This document shows, one piece after another, positions 3,190 through 27,787 of a stretch of 64,000 nt of DNA. The translations under genes were made by a program, and so were the position numbers. Origin of the DNA: Escherichia coli (GTDB lineage: Bacteria > Pseudomonadota > Gammaproteobacteria > Enterobacterales > Enterobacteriaceae); assembly GCF_003334335.1 (NCBI RefSeq), contig NZ_QOWQ01000002.1. One strand, given 5' to 3'. The number at the start of each line of letters is the position of its first letter. Within the stretch, counting starts at the first letter, position 1. Under the pieces are notes generated by a model. It made no database searches, was not told where the DNA came from, and saw only the letters and a list, made by a program, of their open reading frames with translations.

Positions 3190-4215
3190 CTACACCGCCT
3201 TATTAGGATCAAATGCGTCGCGGACGGCTTCACCAATAAAGATCAGCAAAGACAATAATATCGCCACCGACAAGAAGGCGGTGATCCCAAGCCACGGGGC
3301 CTGAAGGTTATTTTTCCCTTGTAACAGCAGTTCACCGAGTGACGGTGAACCGAGCGGTAGACCGAAGCCGAGGAAATCGAGCGAGGTCAGGGTGGTTATC
3401 GAACTACATAAAATAAACGGTAAAAAGGTGAGGGTCGCGACCATGGCATTAGGCAACATATGACGCAGGATGATACTGCGATCGCTGACGCCAAGCGCCT
3501 GTGCCGCACGAATGTAGTCGAAATTACGAGTACGTAAAAACTCCGCCCGCACCACGCCGACCAGACTCATCCAGCCAAACAAGACAGTAATTGCCAGCAG
3601 CCACCAGAAGTTAGGCTGTACGACGCTGGAAAGTAAAATAATCAAAAACAGCGTCGGCATCCCCGACCATACTTCAATAAAGCGTTGTCCCCAGAGATCG
3701 ACTTTACCGCCGTAATAGCCTTGTAGCGCCCCCGCCAGCACGCCCATCACGCTGGAACAGAGAGTCAGCATCAGGCCAAACAGAACCGAGATCCGCGTGC
3801 CATAGAGAATGCGTGCCAGCACATCGCCGCCGTTGGCATCCGTTCCCAGCCAGTTTTGCCGGGAGGGTGGAGAAGGGAAGGGCTTATCGGTAGCAAAGTT
3901 GATACTGGTAGCACCAAAGCGAATCGGTGCCCACAGTACCCAGCCGTTATTTTCCAGCCGTTGTTTCAGCCACGGGTCCTGATAATCAGCCTGACTTGCC
4001 AGCGGGCCGCCAAAATCGCTTTCGCTGTAGTTTTTCAATAACGGGAAATACCAACTGCCGTCATAACGCACCAGCAACGGTTTATCGTTGGCGATAAGTT
4101 CAGAACACAAACTCAAACCAAACAAGACGAGGAAAATCCATAACGACCAGTAGCCGCGACGGTTATGACGAAAACGCGCCCAACGGGCCTGATTGACGGG
4201 GCTGAGTCGCGACAT
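3190..4215 (-). CDS. yejE: ABC transporter permease (oligopeptide type)
   Basis: 341-aa polytopic membrane ORF; stop abuts yejF start; start overlaps yejB stop. Confidence 0.92.
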   Translation of the reverse strand: MSRLSPVNQARWARFRHNRRGYWSLWIFLVLFGLSLCSELIANDKPLLVRYDGSWYFPLLKNYSESDFGGPLASQADYQDPWLKQRLENNGWVLWAPIRFGATSINFATDKPFPSPPSRQNWLGTDANGGDVLARILYGTRISVLFGLMLTLCSSVMGVLAGALQGYYGGKVDLWGQRFIEVWSGMPTLFLIILLSSVVQPNFWWLLAITVLFGWMSLVGVVRAEFLRTRNFDYIRAAQALGVSDRSIILRHMLPNAMVATLTFLPFILCSSITTLTSLDFLGFGLPLGSPSLGELLLQGKNNLQAPWLGITAFLSVAILLSLLIFIGEAVRDAFDPNKAV

Positions 4216-5309
4216 TAACGTCCCTCAAAATCAATACGCGGATCAACCAGCGTATAGCTGATATCACTGACAATATTCAGCAGCAGGCCAATCAGGGTGA
4301 AAATATACAAGGTACCAAACATTACAGGATAATCGCGCGAGACGGTCGCTTCGTAGCCCAGTAAGCCCAGACCATTGAGTGAAAACATCACCTCAATCAG
4401 CAGCGAGCCGGTAAAAAACATGCTGATAAACGTCGCCGGAAAACCGGCAATCACCAGCAGCATGGCGTTGCGGAACACATGTTTCCAGAGAATATTTTTT
4501 TCACTTACCCCTTTCGCACGCGCGGTCACCACGTATTGCTTGCGCACTTCATCAAGGAATGAGTTTTTTGTCAGCATGGTCAGCGCCGCAAAGCCACCAA
4601 TCACTGTCGCCAGCACCGGCAGCGTGATATGCCACAGATAATCGGTGATTTTCTGATACCACGGCAGCGAATCAAAGTTAGCGGAAACCAGGCCGCGTAG
4701 AGGGAACAGGTCGAAATAGCTGCCGCCCGCGAAGAAGACAATCAGCAGGATGGCAAACAAAAAGGCCGGAATGGCGTAGCCGATGATGATAAATGCGCTA
4801 CTCCAGACGTCAAAGCGGCTCCCATTATAAACAGCTTTGCGAATGCCTAACGGAATCGACACCAGATAGATAATCAGCGTGCTCCACAATCCGAGGGTGA
4901 TGGAAACCGGCAGACTGTCTTTAATCAGCGTCAGCACCGAGGCGCTGCGAAACAGGCTATCGCCAAAATCAAAGCGGATGTAGTCCCAGAGCATTTTGAA
5001 GTAACGTTCGTGGATCGGCTTATCAAAACCGTAGCGATGAGTGATCTCAGCGATCACTTCTGGATCTAATCCGCGTCCGCCACGGTAATTACTGTCGCTG
5101 ATATTGCCGACACCCGTTTGCGCATGGCTGGCACGAACACCTTCACCGCCTGCGCCGGGTAATACTCCGGCATTACCAAACTCAATGGCGGCGATGGCCT
5201 GGTCGACCGGACCGCCAGGCGCAATTTGCACGATGAAAAAGTTGATGGTGATAATCGCCCATAATGTTGGGATCACCAGCAACAGACGGCGAATCAGGTA
5301 AGCGCCCAT
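4215..5309 (-). CDS. yejB: ABC transporter permease (oligopeptide type)
   Basis: 364-aa membrane ORF adjacent to yejA stop; operon context. Confidence 0.92.
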
Positions 5310-8942: not shown

Positions 8943-9509
8943 TTAGCTGCGGCTGAGAACCCGGCGTGCTTCGTTGTAACGCTTCTTCCAGTACGGTTCA
9001 TTCATGCTGGAAATAATAACACCACTGCTGGTGGAAGCATGGACAAACTGATTGTTGCCGATATAAATACCGACATGGCGTCCCGTTGAACCGGCACGGA
9101 ACAGAACTAAATCACCCGTACGCAAATTACTGCGGGAAACAGATTTACCCATTTCCTGCTGTTCGTAAGTCGAACGCGGAAGTTCTAAGCCAAATTGCTC
9201 ACGGAATGTACGCTGTACGAAACCAGAACAATCGATACCTTTTTTAGTGCTGCCGCCCAGACGATAACGTACGCCTTTCCAGTCAGCATACTGATCCATA
9301 ATTCGCGATTTTACGTCGACATTACGAACCAGGTTTTCAAATTCATCCTGAGAAGCTTGCAGTGATGATGTTTCACTACCCACTGCACGTGTCTCAGGAT
9401 GCATATTCTTTGCGGTGTTATTTGCACTACATGCAGAAAGCAGAACCGCTACTGCAATCGCGGGAATCCCGCGCAAGATATATCTCAAAATCGGTTGAGA
9501 TTTGACCAT
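8943..9509 (-). CDS. mepS: Murein DD-endopeptidase lipoprotein, NlpC/P60 family (Spr)
   Basis: 188-aa ORF with lipoprotein signal (LLSAC) and NlpC/P60 catalytic Cys context (GIDCSGFV); strong terminator downstream. Confidence 0.93.
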
Positions 9510-9920
9510 GTTGTTTGTTTTCCCTTGAAGTCCTTAACGACAAATATCGTTATAAAAAAATGCCAAGCGACACGAGACTAATTACCTGGGCATGTTGAAA
9601 CAATTCCTTAAGGCCAAATCTGTGGACTAACGCACAAAATTATATGCTGTGAGGATAATCTACCGCCGAGGCAAAACGAGTTCGAGATTACCCGATTGGT
9701 GCGGTCTTGGCGAGCGGTTTTACATGATTTTTTATAAGAAAAAGTGATACAGAAAGTTAATAAGCGGGGTTGGTCAATTAAAGTACAATTGAGTGAAACG
9801 CATGCAATCCATTCATTTACTTAGAGAATGATTTTTGCGTTCGATAGATGAAAGCACGGTGCGCATCATCAGGATTATCCTCACTATAAAAATAACCCTG
9901 ATGATGTTAATTACTGTGAG

Positions 9921-10634
9921 TTATTTGTTTTGGAAATGTTTGTTTTTTCCTGGTAGTGATTTGTCAAAAAAGGTGATTAATCGATCACTTAATGGCGTCA
10001 GCAACACCCAGGGCAAACCGATCAATATCACGGTCATCGAACCGACAATGATGTCAGTAAACCAGTGTGCGCCAATCATTACTCTGGGAAATGCAAAAAC
10101 CACAAAAATAATAAGGGCGATAAGGCCTGCAACTTTGCCGAAATAACGCCACATGAATGCCGAAAAAATAAGCAGCATCATGCCGTGATCGCCGGGAAAG
10201 CTATCTCGTGAGGCATCTTTCGTGGGAACAGAGAGCAGTTCGCTGACGCGGTTAATATCGGTAAAAGTCAATGTTGGGCTGGCCCGTTTTACAGGAATTA
10301 ATGCCTGACCCAGCTGGTTTAATACCACTGCAGTTAATAGCATGACCAGACCAATAATCACGATACGTCGTCTGCCAGGGGCGTTTTCTTTCAGCCAGAA
10401 ACTCAGCATCAACATACCCATCGCCAGCAGTGAACAACCGTCGAAGGCGCGATTGTTGGTCAATGCAACCAGCCACAAAAAGGCCTTACTTTCGACCAGT
10501 TTCTGATTAAAGAAATAAAAAATATCCGCATCAATCGGCAACCAGAATCCATGATTAACGGGGATATACCAGGAAAGAAACAGCGCGAGGCCGACAATAT
10601 TCAACAACACTATTTGCGGCAAATTTTTAATCAT
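9921..10634 (-). CDS. lpxT: Lipid A 1-diphosphate synthase / undecaprenyl-pyrophosphate phosphatase family membrane protein
   Basis: Polytopic PAP2-like membrane ORF; ORF-track start 10670 trimmed to MIKNLPQ to give 237 aa. Confidence 0.85.
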   Translation of the reverse strand: MIKNLPQIVLLNIVGLALFLSWYIPVNHGFWLPIDADIFYFFNQKLVESKAFLWLVALTNNRAFDGCSLLAMGMLMLSFWLKENAPGRRRIVIIGLVMLLTAVVLNQLGQALIPVKRASPTLTFTDINRVSELLSVPTKDASRDSFPGDHGMMLLIFSAFMWRYFGKVAGLIALIIFVVFAFPRVMIGAHWFTDIIVGSMTVILIGLPWVLLTPLSDRLITFFDKSLPGKNKHFQNK

Positions 10635-18077: not shown

Positions 18078-19769
18078 ATGAAAACGCTGCTGATTATTGA
18101 CGCTAATCTCGGTCAGGCACGCGCCTATATGGCGAAGACCCTGCTGGGCGCGGCGGCGCGAAAAGCAAAACTGGAAATCATCGACAATCCGAACGACGCT
18201 GAAATGGCGATTGTTCTCGGTGATTCCATCCCGAACGACAGCGCGCTGAACGGTAAAAATGTCTGGCTGGGCGATATTTCCCGGGCAGTTGCGCACCCTG
18301 AGCTGTTCCTGAGTGAAGCCAAAGGCCATGCGAAACCTTACACTGCGCCGGTCGCTGCGACAGCACCAGTTGCCGCCAGCGGTCCGAAACGCGTAGTTGC
18401 GGTGACTGCTTGCCCGACTGGCGTAGCACACACCTTTATGGCGGCTGAAGCCATTGAAACCGAAGCGAAAAAACGTGGCTGGTGGGTGAAAGTTGAAACC
18501 CGTGGTTCTGTTGGCGCGGGTAATGCAATCACTCCCGAAGAAGTCGCAGCAGCGGATCTGGTGATTGTGGCGGCAGATATCGAAGTGGATCTGGCGAAAT
18601 TTGCTGGTAAACCGATGTATCGTACCTCTACCGGTCTGGCGCTGAAGAAAACCGCGCAGGAACTGGATAAAGCGGTTGCTGAAGCAACGCCGTATGAACC
18701 GGCGGGCAAAGCTCAAACGGCGACCACTGAAAGTAAGAAAGAGAGTGCAGGCGCATACCGTCACTTGCTGACGGGCGTTTCTTACATGCTGCCGATGGTC
18801 GTTGCAGGTGGTCTGTGTATCGCGCTTTCTTTTGCTTTTGGTATCGAAGCGTTTAAAGAGCCGGGTACGTTGGCTGCGGCGCTGATGCAGATTGGTGGTG
18901 GTTCAGCCTTTGCGCTGATGGTGCCGGTACTGGCAGGTTATATTGCCTTTTCCATTGCCGATCGTCCGGGCCTCACTCCGGGTCTGATTGGCGGTATGCT
19001 GGCGGTCAGCACCGGTTCTGGCTTCATTGGTGGTATTATTGCGGGCTTCCTGGCTGGTTACATTGCGAAGTTAATCAGTACGCAATTGAAACTGCCACAG
19101 AGTATGGAGGCGCTGAAACCGATCCTGATCATTCCGCTAATTTCCAGTCTGGTGGTCGGTCTGGCGATGATCTACCTGATCGGTAAACCAGTTGCTGGCA
19201 TTCTCGAAGGGCTGACTCACTGGCTGCAGACCATGGGGACTGCGAATGCGGTTCTGCTGGGGGCGATCCTCGGTGGCATGATGTGTACTGACATGGGCGG
19301 TCCGGTAAACAAAGCAGCGTACGCATTCGGTGTGGGTCTGCTGAGTACTCAAACCTATGGCCCGATGGCGGCGATTATGGCGGCAGGTATGGTGCCACCG
19401 CTGGCAATGGGTCTGGCAACAATGGTGGCGCGTCGCAAATTCGACAAAGCGCAGCAGGAAGGTGGCAAAGCCGCTCTGGTATTGGGACTGTGCTTCATTT
19501 CGGAAGGTGCAATTCCGTTTGCTGCTCGTGATCCGATGCGTGTGCTGCCGTGCTGTATCGTGGGTGGGGCGCTGACTGGCGCAATCTCAATGGCGATTGG
19601 TGCGAAACTGATGGCACCGCACGGTGGTCTGTTTGTTCTGCTGATCCCTGGCGCTATTACGCCGGTATTGGGTTACCTAGTAGCAATTATTGCCGGTACG
19701 CTGGTGGCGGGTTTGGCCTATGCCTTCCTGAAACGTCCGGAAGTGGACGCAGTAGCGAAAGCAGCGTAA
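18078..19769 (+). CDS. fruA: Fructose-specific PTS IIB'BC component
   Basis: 563-aa ORF with IIB Cys motif (VTACPTGVAHTFMAAE) and polytopic IIC domain; terminator downstream. Confidence 0.95.
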   Translation: MKTLLIIDANLGQARAYMAKTLLGAAARKAKLEIIDNPNDAEMAIVLGDSIPNDSALNGKNVWLGDISRAVAHPELFLSEAKGHAKPYTAPVAATAPVAASGPKRVVAVTACPTGVAHTFMAAEAIETEAKKRGWWVKVETRGSVGAGNAITPEEVAAADLVIVAADIEVDLAKFAGKPMYRTSTGLALKKTAQELDKAVAEATPYEPAGKAQTATTESKKESAGAYRHLLTGVSYMLPMVVAGGLCIALSFAFGIEAFKEPGTLAAALMQIGGGSAFALMVPVLAGYIAFSIADRPGLTPGLIGGMLAVSTGSGFIGGIIAGFLAGYIAKLISTQLKLPQSMEALKPILIIPLISSLVVGLAMIYLIGKPVAGILEGLTHWLQTMGTANAVLLGAILGGMMCTDMGGPVNKAAYAFGVGLLSTQTYGPMAAIMAAGMVPPLAMGLATMVARRKFDKAQQEGGKAALVLGLCFISEGAIPFAARDPMRVLPCCIVGGALTGAISMAIGAKLMAPHGGLFVLLIPGAITPVLGYLVAIIAGTLVAGLAYAFLKRPEVDAVAKAA

Positions 19770-19926
19770 TAAAAGGTGTGTTACAGGGCAGAAATTTCCT
19801 GTCCTGTAACATTTGATGAGCGCAAAGAGAATGACCGGTTTGTGAATGTAATTTTATGAATTTAAATGGTTTTATCTTTCAGTAGAAACTTCAAACGTTC
19901 ATCAAACACTCAGGTTATTTCCTCAA

Positions 19927-19955
19927 GGGCAGATTATTTTCTGCCCTTTTTTATT
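19927..19955 (+). terminator. Rho-independent terminator of the fruBKA operon
   Basis: gggcag / ctgccc stem followed by a 9-nt T run. Confidence 0.85.
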
Positions 19956-20191
19956 GTTCTGTTCTGTGCATCCCGTCACAAATTCCTCGCTTTTGTAATT
20001 CAGGCATTTAATCGCATTTTGTGAGCCTGCTCAAATCTGCCCATTTTGCCTCTCTGGCGGTAATTTACTTTACGTAAAACATGCATACTATGAGCACATG
20101 TTTAAATATGAACACATGTTTAAACCGTCTTTGCAGTATCTATATTCTTGTGGATTGACAGGGTTGGTAATTTTTTACCAGAGGACGTGCT

Positions 20192-21133
20192 ATGCGCGAA
20201 AAGGATTATGTCGTAATTATAGGTTCGGCGAATATTGATGTCGCCGGATATTCACATGAATCATTAAATTATGCGGATTCAAATCCAGGTAAAATAAAAT
20301 TTACGCCTGGTGGAGTAGGGCGCAATATTGCACAAAACCTGGCGTTGCTGGGTAACAAAGCCTGGCTACTGAGCGCCGTAGGCAGTGATTTTTATGGTCA
20401 ATCGCTGCTAACGCAAACCAATCAATCTGGCGTTTATGTCGATAAATGCCTGATTGTGCCGGGAGAAAATACGTCGAGTTATTTATCATTACTCGATAAT
20501 ACCGGTGAAATGCTGGTTGCTATAAATGACATGAATATTAGCAACGCTATTACAGCTGAATATCTCGCACAGCACGGTGAATTTATTCAGAGGGCAAAGG
20601 TCATTGTCGCGGACTGTAATATCAGTGAAGAGGCACTGGCATGGATTCTGGATAATGCCGCCAACGTACCCGTATTTGTCGATCCGGTTTCGGCATGGAA
20701 ATGTGTCAAAGTGCGCGACCGTCTAAATCAGATCCACACTCTCAAGCCAAACCGCCTTGAAGCGGAAACCCTGAGTGGGATTGCGCTGTCAGGGCGTGAA
20801 GATGTGGCAAAAGTTGCTGCCTGGTTCCATCAACATGGCCTGAACCGACTGGTATTGAGCATGGGCGGCGACGGCGTTTATTACAGCGATATCAGCGGTG
20901 AAAGTGGCTGGTCTGCGCCGATCAAAACCAATGTTATTAATGTTACCGGAGCGGGCGATGCCATGATGGCGGGACTTGCTTCGTGTTGGGTAGACGGAAT
21001 GCCGTTTGCCGAATCTGTTCGTTTCGCACAGGGATGTTCGTCAATGGCGCTCTCCTGTGAATACACCAATAACCCCGATTTATCGATTGCCAACGTTATA
21101 TCGTTAGTGGAGAACGCAGAATGTCTGAATTAA
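20192..21133 (+). CDS. psuK: Pseudouridine kinase, PfkB family
   Basis: 313-aa PfkB-type kinase ORF; overlaps psuG start by 13 nt. Confidence 0.9.
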   Translation: MREKDYVVIIGSANIDVAGYSHESLNYADSNPGKIKFTPGGVGRNIAQNLALLGNKAWLLSAVGSDFYGQSLLTQTNQSGVYVDKCLIVPGENTSSYLSLLDNTGEMLVAINDMNISNAITAEYLAQHGEFIQRAKVIVADCNISEEALAWILDNAANVPVFVDPVSAWKCVKVRDRLNQIHTLKPNRLEAETLSGIALSGREDVAKVAAWFHQHGLNRLVLSMGGDGVYYSDISGESGWSAPIKTNVINVTGAGDAMMAGLASCWVDGMPFAESVRFAQGCSSMALSCEYTNNPDLSIANVISLVENAECLN

Positions 21134-22152: not shown

Positions 22153-23402
22153 ATGGATATAATGAGAAGTGTTGTGGGGATGGTGGTGTTACTGGCAATA
22201 GCATTTCTGTTGTCAGTGAATAAAAAGAGCATCAGTTTGCGCACGGTTGGAGCCGCACTGCTGCTGCAAATCGCTATTGGTGGCATCATGCTCTACTTCC
22301 CACCGGGAAAATGGGCAGTAGAACAGGCGGCATTAGGCGTTCATAAAGTGATGTCTTACAGTGATGCCGGTAGCGCCTTCATTTTTGGTTCGCTGGTTGG
22401 GCCGAAAATGGATGTCCTGTTTGACGGTGCGGGTTTTATCTTCGCCTTTCGCGTACTTCCGGCGATTATTTTCGTTACTGCGCTCATCAGTCTGCTGTAC
22501 TACATTGGCGTGATGGGGCTGCTGATTCGCATCCTTGGCAGCATTTTCCAGAAAGCCCTCAACATCAGCAAAATCGAATCTTTTGTTGCGGTTACTACTA
22601 TTTTCCTCGGGCAAAATGAGATCCCGGCGATCGTTAAACCGTTTATCGATCGCATGAATCGCAACGAGTTGTTTACCGCAATTTGTAGCGGGATGGCGTC
22701 CATTGCTGGTTCGATGATGATTGGTTATGCCGGAATGGGCGTACCAATTGACTACCTGTTAGCGGCATCGCTGATGGCGATCCCTGGCGGGATTTTGTTT
22801 GCACGTATTCTTAGCCCGGCAACCGAGCCTTCGCAGGTCACATTTGAAAATCTGTCGTTCAGCGAAACGCCGCCAAAAAGCTTTATCGAAGCGGCGGCGA
22901 GCGGTGCGATGACCGGGCTAAAAATCGCCGCGGTGTGGCGACGGTGGTAATGGCGTTTGTCGCAATTATTGCGCTGATCAACGGCATTATCGGCGGAATT
23001 GGCGGCTGGTTTGGTTTCGCCAATGCCTCTCTGGAAAGTATTTTTGGCTATGTGCTGGCACCGCTGGCGTGGATCATGGGTGTGGACTGGAGTGATGCCA
23101 ATCTTGCGGGTAGCCTGATTGGGCAGAAACTGGCGATTAACGAATTCGTCGCTTACCTGAGTTTCTCCCCATACCTGCAAACGGGCGGCACGCTGGAAGT
23201 GAAAACCATTGCGATTATCTCCTTTGCGCTTTGTGGTTTTGCTAACTTTGGTTCTATCGGTGTTGTCGTTGGCGCATTTTCGGCTATTTCGCCAAAACGC
23301 GCGCCGGAAATCGCCCAGCTTGGTTTACGGGCGCTGGCAGCAGCAACGCTTTCCAACCTGATGAGTGCGACTATTGCCGGGTTCTTTATTGGTCTGGCGT
23401 AA
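22153..23402 (+). pseudogene. psuT: NupC-family nucleoside (pseudouridine) transporter, disrupted by a -1 frameshift near 22927-22934
   Basis: Two consecutive ORFs (22153..22950 and 22935..23402) together align along the full length of the intact 416-aa paralogue NupX; frame changes at gccgcggtg where NupX has gccgcaggtg. Confidence 0.8.
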
Positions 23403-24132: not shown

Positions 24133-24300
24133 CAATTGCTGCTTAAGATCATTATTGTGGATTTCTTTCACGATGTTTATCCGCTATGAGATTTCTCATA
24201 TTTAGCATACGTACGCTGTTGTTAAGATTCAATCATCGGCCCGGTCGAATTTTCTTTGCTGTAGAAAAAATAACGCAACTGGAAACAGAGGAAATAAACA

Positions 24301-25341: not shown

Positions 25342-26592
25342 ATGGATGTCATGAGAAGTGTTCTGGGAATGGTGGTATTGCTGACGATTGCGTTTTTACT
25401 GTCAGTAAACAAGAAGAAGATCAGCCTGCGTACCGTTGGCGCGGCGTTAGTGTTACAGGTCGTGATTGGCGGCATTATGCTTTGGTTACCGCCAGGGCGT
25501 TGGGTCGCTGAAAAAGTCGCTTTTGGCGTGCATAAAGTGATGGCGTACAGCGACGCGGGTAGCGCATTTATCTTCGGTTCTCTGGTCGGACCGAAAATGG
25601 ATACCTTATTTGATGGTGCAGGATTTATCTTTGGTTTCAGGGTGTTACCGGCAATTATCTTCGTCACCGCGCTGGTGAGTATTCTCTACTACATCGGTGT
25701 GATGGGGATTTTAATTCGAATTCTCGGCGGTATCTTCCAGAAAGCATTAAATATCAGCAAGATCGAGTCATTCGTCGCGGTCACCACCATTTTCCTCGGG
25801 CAAAACGAAATTCCGGCAATCGTCAAACCCTTTATCGATCGTCTGAATCGCAATGAATTATTTACAGCGATTTGTAGTGGCATGGCCTCGATTGCTGGTT
25901 CGACAATGATTGGTTACGCCGCACTGGGCGTGCCTGTGGAATATCTGCTGGCGGCATCATTAATGGCGATCCCTGGCGGGATCTTGTTTGCCCGCCTGTT
26001 AAGCCCGGCAACGGAATCTTCGCAGGTTTCCTTTAATAACCTCTCTTTCACCGAAACACCGCCAAAAAGCATTATTGAAGCCGCTGCGACAGGGGCAATG
26101 ACCGGGCTGAAAATCGCCGCAGGTGTGGCAACAGTGGTGATGGCATTTGTTGCAATAATTGCGTTGATTAACGGTATTATCGGCGGCGTTGGTGGCTGGT
26201 TTGGTTTTGAACATGCCTCGCTGGAGTCCATTTTAGGTTACCTGCTGGCTCCACTGGCGTGGGTGATGGGTGTGGACTGGAGTGATGCGAATCTTGCCGG
26301 GAGTTTGATTGGACAGAAACTGGCAATAAATGAATTTGTCGCTTATCTCAATTTCTCACCCTATCTGCAAACGGCTGGCACTCTCGATGCTAAAACTGTG
26401 GCGATTATTTCCTTCGCGTTGTGCGGTTTCGCTAACTTTGGTTCTATCGGGGTGGTGGTGGGGGCGTTTTCTGCGGTTGCGCCACACCGTGCGCCGGAAA
26501 TCGCCCAGCTTGGTTTACGGGCGCTGGCGGCGGCGACGCTTTCCAACTTGATGAGTGCGACCATTGCCGGGTTCTTTATTGGTTTAGCTTGA
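25342..26592 (+). CDS. nupX: NupC-family nucleoside transporter
   Basis: Intact 416-aa polytopic membrane ORF; close paralogue of psuT. Confidence 0.92.
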   Translation: MDVMRSVLGMVVLLTIAFLLSVNKKKISLRTVGAALVLQVVIGGIMLWLPPGRWVAEKVAFGVHKVMAYSDAGSAFIFGSLVGPKMDTLFDGAGFIFGFRVLPAIIFVTALVSILYYIGVMGILIRILGGIFQKALNISKIESFVAVTTIFLGQNEIPAIVKPFIDRLNRNELFTAICSGMASIAGSTMIGYAALGVPVEYLLAASLMAIPGGILFARLLSPATESSQVSFNNLSFTETPPKSIIEAAATGAMTGLKIAAGVATVVMAFVAIIALINGIIGGVGGWFGFEHASLESILGYLLAPLAWVMGVDWSDANLAGSLIGQKLAINEFVAYLNFSPYLQTAGTLDAKTVAIISFALCGFANFGSIGVVVGAFSAVAPHRAPEIAQLGLRALAAATLSNLMSATIAGFFIGLA

Positions 26593-26698: not shown

Positions 26699-27787
26699 TT
26701 ACACCATTGGCACTAATGAAAGCGCGTTATCGGCAGACAGGGTAGGGTTGTTTAAGCTGCCGCTGGCGCGCGAAATTGCCGCGCAGGCTACCGCAAAACG
26801 GGCGCTGTCGCGGAAACTGTATCCTTCAAGAAAGCTATATACCAGGCCCGCCATAAAACCATCGTCAGCACCAAAACTGTCTACTGTCGTATGCGCTGGC
26901 GCGGTCAGCAAAAATTGTTCTCCATCCTTTTCGCTGCAATAAACTGACTCATCGGGCAAATAAACAAACAGTTGCTGAACACCTTGCTGATGCAATGCAT
27001 TCACTGCGGTATTACGGTCAGCATCGCTGGTGATCGCCTGTCCCCATAAAATTTCCAGCTCCGGTAAAGTGGGTTTCAGGGTGTGAATATGCGCCAGCCA
27101 GTGTTTGATTTTGCCCGCTTTGAATTCTGAAACGGTATCGACAAACACCGGGATTTCATCAGCGAGGGTAAAGACCCATTCCAGCGCCTCGGCTGTCAGG
27201 TTGCAATCAGCCAGTACCACGCCCGCATGACGAAGTAAATCGCGCGACCCGTTCAGTAGTTGCGGTGTCAACTGTTCCAGCAGATGGGTATCGTTAATCG
27301 CCAGCACGGTTTGATCGTCTCGATTGGCAATTGCCAGATACGTCGATGTGCTTTGACCATGCAAACGAACGCAGCCGGAGACATTCACGCCGGCACGGCG
27401 CGTTTCTTCCAGGAGCATTTCGCCATAAAAGTCATCGCCAATCACTGAAAGCAAATGGACGTCACGGCCTAACAGCGCCAGATTGTGGGCGATGTTGCGT
27501 CCCACGCCGCCCGCTGAGCAATGAATTGTACCGGGATGAGAAGCCGATTGCGGGTAACGGATATCCGCCATCCCGCGAATATCCATATTGATTGTCCCCA
27601 CCACTACGCAGTATTCCTGCTCGGTGAGAATGTAACCTTTGCCTTTAATCCGGCCTTTGCGCATTAAATCCATAATATGCGCCGCAACGCGCGAACGGCT
27701 GATTTGCAGCATGTCCGCAATTTCGTTCTGCTGAATCAGCGGGTTACGCCGTAAAATTGCAAGGATCTCCTTTTCCCGGTTATTCAT
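26699..27787 (-). CDS. yeiI: Sugar/nucleoside kinase (PfkB family) with N-terminal winged-helix HTH domain
   Basis: 362-aa ORF; N-terminal HTH (EILAILRRNPLIQQNEIADMLQISRSRV) fused to a PfkB domain that aligns by eye with PsuK (GGVGRNIA.NLALLG). Confidence 0.88.
   Translation of the reverse strand: MNNREKEILAILRRNPLIQQNEIADMLQISRSRVAAHIMDLMRKGRIKGKGYILTEQEYCVVVGTINMDIRGMADIRYPQSASHPGTIHCSAGGVGRNIAHNLALLGRDVHLLSVIGDDFYGEMLLEETRRAGVNVSGCVRLHGQSTSTYLAIANRDDQTVLAINDTHLLEQLTPQLLNGSRDLLRHAGVVLADCNLTAEALEWVFTLADEIPVFVDTVSEFKAGKIKHWLAHIHTLKPTLPELEILWGQAITSDADRNTAVNALHQQGVQQLFVYLPDESVYCSEKDGEQFLLTAPAHTTVDSFGADDGFMAGLVYSFLEGYSFRDSARFAVACAAISRASGSLNNPTLSADNALSLVPMV

Follow-up and report, generated by a model that had tools for sequence, protein, structure and literature searches.

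Paired palindromes at the Escherichia coli psuK promoter as a predicted operator, with YeiI as the favoured candidate regulator

Comparable regulatory systems

The regulators BirA and NadR each carry an N-terminal winged helix fused to an enzyme domain of the pathway that they control, and their operators overlap a promoter of that pathway. The same layout is proposed for YeiI, a protein encoded in a 64,000-nucleotide stretch of Escherichia coli DNA (contig NZ_QOWQ01000002.1; the 64-kb "window" below), and here too the substrate or product of the enzyme is the presumed effector. The element in question is a tandem repeat upstream of psuK (20192-21133, plus strand), which encodes pseudouridine kinase and is the first gene of the psuK-psuG-psuT operon. 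Judged from comparison of orthologous promoters, the repeat very probably holds two sites at which a dimeric regulator of the pseudouridine operon binds, and YeiI is favoured, on sequence evidence, as the best-supported regulator.

YeiI (362 amino acids; yeiI at 26699-27787, minus strand) consists of an HTH_24 winged-helix domain (residues 1-48, E = 2e-10) followed by a PfkB domain, and its residues 3-56 gave a weak NCBIfam match to the N-terminus of BirA. However, BirA has a biotin ligase fold, whereas the enzyme-like domain of YeiI belongs to the PfkB ribokinase-like fold, and in E. coli the function is apparently split between PsuK and YeiI. NagC and Mlc, of the ROK family, repress catabolic genes and sense the matching ligand through a kinase-like domain, and paralogous enzymes and regulators exist side by side. 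The kinase superfamilies of NagC/Mlc and YeiI are unrelated (ASKHA and PfkB, respectively), and their operators are different. With the Lrp/AsnC regulators, YeiI shares the HTH_24 domain and a weak match to archaeal Lrp-like structures. Short palindromes with closely spaced half-sites (5-N3-5) are typical of the Lrp/AsnC class. However, YeiI is without the RAM/ACT effector domain, and the spacing at psuK is N2.

The operators of GlpR and DeoR (for example, TGTTCGATAACGAACA at glpD) resemble the psuK element in their TGTTY-N6-GAACA geometry, in a nearly identical half-site and in their position over the -10/+1 region of a catabolic promoter. In contrast, the psuK unit is an N2-spaced palindrome of 12 bp with a period of 18-19 bp rather than 20 bp, and YeiI carries HTH_24 and gave no match to HTH_DeoR. 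The deoP2, udp and cdd promoters, which are controlled by CRP and a specific repressor, are like psuK in having a weak -35 hexamer, an upstream CRP box and a pathway-specific repressor, the last being proposed for psuK. They differ from psuK, which has a single CRP-like box at about -71, no CytR-type arrangement, and sites on and downstream of +1.

The repeat, its paired palindromes and the psuK promoter

The preliminary description of this DNA, made from the sequence alone, had reported a repeat at 20092-20126, where the sequence gagcacatgtttaaatatgaacacatgtttaaacc was indeed present. Its two copies 18 bp apart were also recovered, since the 12-mer CACATGTTTAAA occurs exactly at 20095-20106 and again at 20113-20124, but the full repeat was larger than described. 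The repeat search showed two contiguous head-to-tail units of 18 nt that were identical at 17 of 18 positions (94%). On the plus strand of the K-12-like allele, unit 1 (TATGAGCACATGTTTAAA) occupies 20089-20106 and unit 2 (TATGAACACATGTTTAAA) occupies 20107-20124, the whole repeat covering 20089-20124. The psuK ATG (20192) lies 97 and 79 bp downstream of the starts of the two 12-mer copies. The CACATGTTTAAA pair was the only exact direct repeat of at least 12 nt at 12-40 bp spacing within the window. First-order Markov simulations gave a 7% chance of at least one such repeat per 64-kb window; therefore, the repeat alone is weak, marginal evidence. The 12-mer at up to two mismatches was not enriched in the window either (5 found, 6.7 expected).

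The fruA-psuK spacer of the window was base-for-base identical to that of K-12 MG1655, and the 801 bases around the repeat had a match in all complete E. coli genomes of the collection (5426/5426). The exact 12-mer duplication was confined to the K-12-like allele, which was carried by 4213 of the 5426 genomes and, outside E. coli, by two Escherichia loci (Escherichia sp. E1V33 and E. whittamii). In B2 E. coli, E. albertii and other genera the second unit is GAACAYGTGCTCTAAT. The preliminary description had considered that absence of the repeats from orthologous promoters would speak against it; such absence was observed for the literal repeat, but the underlying sites were retained. The tandem 2 x 18-nt repeat reflects homogenisation of two operator units in one lineage, and what appears to mark the element as non-random, from the alignments, is conservation. 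The spacer together with psuK exists in E. coli as two deeply diverged haplotypes (19770-21133 of the window against 9171-10567 of locus L014), about 78% K-12-like and about 22% of the other type. In the latter (e.g. B2 strain NU14), psuK is 88% identical at the protein level and E. albertii-like. The flanking fruA and psuG genes are 97-99% identical around the diverged haplotype, which suggests an old recombination tract.

The alignment of orthologous promoters comprised 12 sequences, from Escherichia sp. E1V33, E. whittamii, E. albertii, Citrobacter (four), Buttiauxella (two) and a Raoultella metagenome-assembled genome (MAG), to which one B2 E. coli and one Enterobacter were added. The data showed a conserved element, RARCA-N2-TGTTY-N6-GAACA-N2-TGYTC, at 20092-20121, formed by two 12-bp palindromes centred 18 bp apart. 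It is part of a gap-free alignment block that extends from 20017 to about 20125, from a CRP-like box through the second site. Site 1, GAGCA-CA-TGTTT, lies at 20092-20103 (about -6 to +6 from the predicted start point); its CA at 20095-96 and TGTT at 20099-20102 were invariant, while its central dinucleotide varied among CA, TG, CG and GA. Site 2, GAACA-CA-TGTTT, lies at 20110-20121 (about +13 to +24) and reads GAACA-YG-TGCTC in other lineages. Its GAACA was invariant or nearly so (AACA at 20111-14 was invariant), as was the TG at 20117-18. Between the two palindromes lies a variable, A/T-rich spacer of 6 bp (20104-20109), which is 7 bp in Shewanella and Aliivibrio. The remaining invariant columns were TGTGA...TCA (20020-20033), TTTAC of the -35 hexamer and TAnTAT of the -10 hexamer.

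The proposal in the preliminary description of a pair of sites for a dimeric regulator was supported in this respect, in that each unit holds a 12-bp palindrome whose sequence and 18-bp spacing were kept across genera. However, the ACATGT that it had taken as the palindromic core had to be replaced by RAACA-YR-TGTTY, in which the two central bases flip freely (CA, TG, CG, TA). Such freely flipping central dinucleotides (CA, TG, CG, GA and TA over both sites) are the signature of DNA dyad symmetry with a palindrome centre that is not contacted. Dyad symmetry was thus found together with conserved sequence, conserved spacing and a conserved position in the promoter, the properties expected of an operator, and we regard it as highly likely on this comparative evidence that a sequence-specific protein binds the paired palindromes at psuK. 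In a scan of the window with a position weight matrix (PWM), site 2 had the top score. The second site that the preliminary description had suggested looking for was not found upstream of rihB, nupX, yeiI or yeiL, nor was there a site upstream of psuT. The other strong match (4473) was rejected, being a single site inside an opposite-strand open reading frame of 364 amino acids at 4215-5309.

The preliminary description had placed the repeat upstream of a promoter, with TTGACA at 20155-20160 as its -35 hexamer. That hexamer exists, but the consensus scan showed no -10 hexamer at 16-18 bp from it, and it was absent from the B2, E. albertii, Citrobacter, Buttiauxella and Enterobacter alleles. 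The conserved promoter precedes the repeat instead: its -35 hexamer, TTTACT (20064-20069, plus strand), was conserved in 11 of the 12 orthologues and is followed after 16 bp by the -10 hexamer, TACTAT (20086-20091, plus strand), of which TAnTAT was conserved. This pair fell below the listing threshold of a simple consensus promoter scan; it has conserved hexamers at the 16-18 bp spacing looked for in a sigma-70 promoter, and a recurrent adaptive mutation alters its -35 hexamer. Because the conserved promoter lies upstream of the repeat, the sites are on and downstream of the start point. From hexamer geometry only, we infer that transcription starts at about 20097-20099 (NC_000913.3 about 2259390, minus strand). 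The sites would then cover about -6 to +24, which is the position of a repressor. The promoter-like TTTAAA (20119), 16 bp, TATATT (20146) was not conserved outside the K-12-like allele and is at most a minor promoter. Class II activation from the inner palindrome was rejected on inspection, as Citrobacter has no suitably placed -10 hexamer.

The CRP-like box upstream of this promoter, TGTGA-N6-TCAAA (20020-20035, plus strand), is centred at 20027.5, about -70.5/-71.5 from the predicted start, a class I position. It was the best match to the CRP consensus in the fruA-psuK spacer (13/22); its TGTGA and TCA were invariant in the 12 promoters, and its distance to the -35 hexamer was free of gaps. 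CRP probably acts at this separate predicted site.

According to the literature, adaptive evolution of E. coli hits the psuK/fruA spacer with a repeatability that few other targets reach. In mouse-gut evolution, the change 2257444 A>C (NC_000913.2) was tabulated in ten mice, and the authors placed this single-nucleotide polymorphism (SNP) in the psuK promoter. In long-term stationary-phase (LTSP) evolution, an intergenic (-126/+297) SNP was reported as one allele in three populations. The shift from NC_000913.2 to later coordinates is +1978, which was checked on four srlR mutations of the same table. With this shift, 2257444 A>C mapped to position 20066 of the window, as T>G on the psuK strand, and changed TTTACT to TTGACT. 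The mouse-gut SNP and the LTSP SNP were the same change, at -126 from psuK. Its natural reading would be a -35 up-mutation of a weak promoter with a start near 20098. Of 4034 genomes, 6 had the TTGACT allele; most of these are laboratory derivatives of K-12, and the carriers include S17-1, ST18, ER1821R, ER2683 and one pigeon isolate. Genomic SELEX (systematic evolution of ligands by exponential enrichment) with RpoD gave promoters before nfo and before yeiI and none for psuK, a pattern that fits a weak, factor-dependent psuK promoter and a constitutively made regulator.

Other features were observed in the same spacer. In some strains, the insertion sequences IS1 (near 19963) and IS200/IS605 are present upstream, and the promoter and operator are left intact. 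The fruA gene is followed by two terminator-like hairpins, at about 19780-19812 and at 19925-19948 plus a T-run, which flank about 110 nt of A/T-rich sequence without a match in Rfam (region 19775-19957); B2 strains have a sequence here that resembles repetitive extragenic palindromic (REP) elements.

YeiI and other candidate regulators of psuK

The genes around the element are ordered fruBKA, psuK, psuG, psuT, yeiL (minus strand), rihB, nupX, yeiI (minus strand) and nfo (minus strand). Convergent yeiI followed psuKGT in every Enterobacteriaceae locus examined and in Affinibrenneria. In Yersinia, Serratia, Xenorhabdus, Pasteurella, Shewanella, Aliivibrio and a Burkholderiaceae MAG, a gene for a YeiI-like HTH-PfkB protein heads an HTH-psuK-psuG(-psuT) operon. 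These operons have no separate psuK, and their flanking genes are unrelated between taxa. Another regulator gene stands beside the operon only in Yersinia, where a GntR-family gene lies downstream of psuT. Linkage of candidate regulator and proposed target across taxa was observed for YeiI and the HTH-PsuK proteins.

Two palindromes resembling AAACA-NN-TGTTT, 18-19 bp apart, were found upstream of the operons of Yersinia, Serratia, Pasteurella, Shewanella, Aliivibrio, Enterobacter and Affinibrenneria. All of these but Enterobacter are cases of the motif upstream of a linked operon with unrelated flanks, six in number. The sites are AGACACATGTTT and AAACAAGTGTCC in Yersinia (18 bp), AAACAAAAGTTG and AAACAGGTGTTG in Pasteurella (18 bp), AAACAAAAGTTT and AAACATATGTTT in Shewanella (19 bp), and AAACAATAGTTA and GAACATATGTTT in Aliivibrio (19 bp). 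In Affinibrenneria, AAACAAGTGTTC-GATATT-GGTCATATGTTT comes after a TGTGA box, TTTACT and TATATA. The paired motif was weak in the Burkholderiaceae MAG. The score of the pair at 18 or 19 bp was higher than in 5000 Markov shuffles in 6 of 7 lineages (p = 2e-4 to 2e-3 each), Xenorhabdus being the exception, and Fisher's combined p for the five lineages outside Enterobacteriaceae was 7e-9, but these p-values are optimistic because the choice of consensus and of the 18-19 bp window was made in part after inspection. Isolated strong palindromes of this type were also observed some 250-290 bp before the HTH-psuK start, namely AACCAAACA-CT-TGTTTGGTT in Yersinia (locus L016, 6747-6766) and CAAACAGATGTTGG in Xenorhabdus (locus L019, about 4714-4730), and may act in looping as auxiliary operators.

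The protein comparison agreed with the DNA comparison. The alignment showed that the recognition helix region, ISRSxVAxHIMxL, is shared by YeiI and the HTH-PsuK proteins, and this conserved helix matches the conserved DNA motif, so that both a DNA-binding domain and a conserved recognition helix were found. By Pfam, NCBIfam and alignment, the closest relative of the YeiI PfkB domain was PsuK, with 38-40% identity. E. coli PsuK shares 53-60% identity with the HTH-PsuK proteins of Yersinia, Xenorhabdus and Pasteurella, in which the GAGD motif is retained, whereas for YeiI of E. coli and Enterobacter the identity to E. coli PsuK is 38-39%, and GADD replaces GAGD. YeiI keeps the equivalents of Asn14, Asp16, Ser30, Asn143, Lys170, Lys185 and Asp256, of which Ser30, Asn143 and Lys170 contact pseudouridine (residue roles from PMC9061257). 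PsuK forms a dimer through a beta-clasp, and binding of pseudouridine shifts an inter-subunit marker distance from about 66 to about 51 Å (PMC9061257). Such a quaternary change could plausibly be relayed allosterically to a domain that is fused immediately ahead of the first strand. The structure search gave no solved structure that takes in the HTH of YeiI-type proteins. YeiI was called uncharacterised in papers of 2022 and 2025 and is listed among hypothetical transcription factors, and our literature search found no psuK regulator and no characterisation of YeiI. The preliminary description had named YeiI among the proteins to be tried in a binding test, and linkage and the shared motif now place it as the best-supported of these.

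On balance, we consider it probable, from the arrangement of sites and genes, that YeiI represses psuK from two palindromic operators, which overlie the start point of a promoter preceded by a CRP-like box. Besides the optimism of the p-values, several points weigh against this assignment. The literature search found no binding, footprint, reporter or start-site data for the psuK promoter, and the start point was placed from the hexamers only. For a helix-turn-helix dimer, a palindrome of the form 5-N2-5 is on the short side, and in Xenorhabdus the paired motif was absent near the HTH-psuK start codon. The PWM scan showed no operator before nfo-yeiI, and E. coli YeiI therefore would not be autoregulated. 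Among the entries listed from the supplements of the evolution experiments that selected the -35 SNP there is no loss-of-function mutation of yeiI, while frlR, dgoR, srlR and glpR were hit repeatedly in such experiments. This lack of yeiI lesions is unexpected for a strong repressor, because the gene of a strongly repressing YeiI should present a large target for mutation. It suggests that repression by YeiI is modest or was already relieved there, with promoter strength limiting; alternatively, YeiI may not be a simple repressor.

The inner TGTTY-N6-GAACA also weighs against YeiI, as it shares the geometry of the GlpR operator at glpD. Another, widely conserved regulator, for example of the DeoR/GlpR family, might thus bind this inner 16-bp palindrome (20099-20114), with the outer half-sites being auxiliary and YeiI being only a kinase paralogue. 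The GlpR operator consensus is a 20-bp palindrome, WATGTTCGWT.AWCGAACATW, and the DeoR operator, TGTTAGAA.TTCTAACA, has the geometry of the inner palindrome and controls nucleoside catabolism. The K-12 glpD operator is TGTTCGATAACGAACA, and the psuK site is TGTTCGATATTGAACA in Citrobacter werkmanii and TGTTTAAATATGAACA in E. coli; in a hand count against TGTTCGWTAWCGAACA, the E. coli site matched at 11/16 positions and the C. werkmanii site at 15/16. The inner half-sites were the best conserved of the operator in the 12 promoters, and glpR is a frequent target in the same evolution experiments. However, in Shewanella and Aliivibrio the spacer between the palindromes is 7 bp, while the N2 inside the palindromes is kept. 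Since the spacer varies (6 or 7 bp) and the inner N2 is constant, the conserved unit is the 12-bp palindrome and not the N6 one. The isolated AACCAAACA-CT-TGTTTGGTT of Yersinia is a perfect palindrome, and the E. coli site is without the CG of the GlpR half-site TGTTCG on either side. There is no functional reason for control of psuK by glycerol-3-phosphate, and no GlpR/DeoR-type regulator gene was linked to the psu genes at any locus examined. We regard a regulator of this type as unlikely.

Less likely still is that the repeat acts in the RNA of the psuK 5' untranslated region (UTR), either as an 11-bp hairpin that affects stability or translation or as a pairing site for the small RNA (sRNA) RprA. 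If transcription starts near 20098, the repeat is transcribed, and the K-12 allele folds into an 11-bp hairpin, GUUUAAAUAUG/CAUGUUUAAAC, at 20100-20125. In the literature, psuK is among the RprA targets common to TRIC-seq and RIL-seq. However, the hairpin was not conserved: 3 of its 11 pairs were unpaired in 9-10 of the 12 sequences, and its pairing did not exceed that of shuffles (122/500). The CA to TG flips at the palindrome centres keep the dyad symmetry of the DNA but not the pairing of the RNA. The duplex energy of RprA with psuK was no better than with shuffled targets, and an Rfam scan of 19500-20500 gave nothing above threshold, only two sub-threshold chance matches. A different hairpin, TGGTAA-TTTT-TTACCA (20165-20180, plus strand), is in the psuK leader outside the repeat and abuts the Shine-Dalgarno sequence GAGGA. 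In the 12 sequences, 98.6% of its cells were paired, with one compensatory change of C:G to U:A, and this hairpin may influence translation or stability or serve as a site for an sRNA.

In several isolates under ciprofloxacin, PsuG and PsuK belong to the proteins whose levels fall most in recA mutants (PMC11039860). A LexA box was considered on account of these RecA-dependent levels and was rejected, as the psuK promoter region contains no CTG-N10-CAG.

The CRP/FNR-type neighbour YeiL, which the preliminary description had put forward as the regulator, is a highly improbable ligand of the repeat. In E. coli, yeiL is 2.3 kb away, and YeiL might bind at the inner palindrome, which is spaced 5-N6-5 as CRP sites are and ranks second in the region by its match to the CRP consensus (12/22). 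However, the operator was intact at loci where yeiL, rihB and nupX are missing (as judged at the locus only), namely those of E. albertii, Citrobacter, Buttiauxella gaviniae and B. massiliensis, Enterobacter and Affinibrenneria; all of these except Affinibrenneria read psuK-psuG-psuT, convergent yeiI and then nfo. In one Buttiauxella and in Hafnia and Enterococcus, the genes of YeiL homologues are divergent from a rihB-type nucleoside hydrolase gene with a transporter gene, and no psu genes are nearby. The core of a candidate YeiL box, ATGAG-N4-CTCAT, had a single exact occurrence in the window, at 24186-24199, and was absent from psuK, and the location at the start point is ill-suited to the annotated activator role of YeiL. 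The operator is thus present at loci that lack yeiL, the candidate YeiL box is unlike it, and the YeiL module is independent of psu.

The sequence TATGAGA-AA-TCTCATA upstream of yeiL (5-N4-5, an FNR-like geometry) was kept in E. coli, Buttiauxella, Hafnia and Enterococcus, and at 24186-24199 it is a candidate YeiL box for yeiL and rihB-nupX. As YeiL is paired with rihB elsewhere, it belongs to a separate rihB-nupX module, which in E. coli appears to have been inserted between psuT and yeiI. The psuT (22153-23402) and nupX (25342-26592) genes are paralogues of about 87-89% identity within 3 kb; this paralogy and the module analysis suggest that the yeiL-rihB-nupX block was inserted next to psuT. 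In the window, psuT carries a 1-bp deletion (one T) at 22931-22932 relative to MG1655 and is split into open reading frames at 22153-22950 and 22935-23402, which is either a pseudogene in the source strain or an assembly error.

That the tandem 18-mer is a functionless neutral slippage duplication is the least credible explanation: the chance of about 7% per 64 kb and the confinement of the exact duplication to one allele class would fit it, but the two-palindrome architecture, its spacing and its place beside the -10 hexamer were conserved across families of Gammaproteobacteria.

Proposed regulation and its significance

In the mechanism proposed for YeiI, a dimer of the protein (winged-helix HTH_24 joined to a PfkB domain paralogous to PsuK) would bind each palindrome, and the two bound dimers would span about -6 to +24, preventing the open complex from forming or the polymerase from escaping the promoter. 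Pseudouridine or its phosphate would bind the kinase-like domain and alter the geometry of the dimer, and YeiI would leave the DNA; CRP would activate from about -71. We infer the binding by YeiI, the sign of the regulation and the inducer from the comparisons above. An ancestral HTH-PsuK protein, both kinase and repressor, would have left YeiI as its regulatory half; the ancestor may have been duplicated and subfunctionalised in the Escherichia-Citrobacter-Enterobacter group, and in many other Gammaproteobacteria the HTH-PsuK form would still head the operon.

A wider and more tentative reading, which we take as a serious possibility without leaning towards it, is that the YeiI family comprises one-component regulators with a PfkB sensor and an HTH_24 domain that acts on paired AAACA-NN-TGTTT sites. 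HTH-PsuK would be both kinase and autorepressor in many Gammaproteobacteria, and would be split into PsuK and YeiI (GADD) in Escherichia, Citrobacter and Enterobacter.

The psuK operator is a local operator for a one-component regulator, which is a familiar kind, and its interest comes from the HTH-PfkB family and the adaptive SNP. If the assignment to YeiI is true, the HTH-PfkB family would have its first assigned operator in the psuK repeat, and yeiI, still a y-gene, would receive a concrete and cheaply testable function. E. coli would gain a defined pseudouridine-sensing switch, with the gut-adaptive -35 SNP acting at the same promoter. This would supply missing regulatory logic for pseudouridine catabolism, a pathway that is now in use in pseudouridine biomanufacturing. 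If the HTH-PsuK proteins are kinase/repressors, a PfkB-based member would join the small set of enzyme-repressor fusions, and they might provide a pseudouridine-responsive biosensor part.

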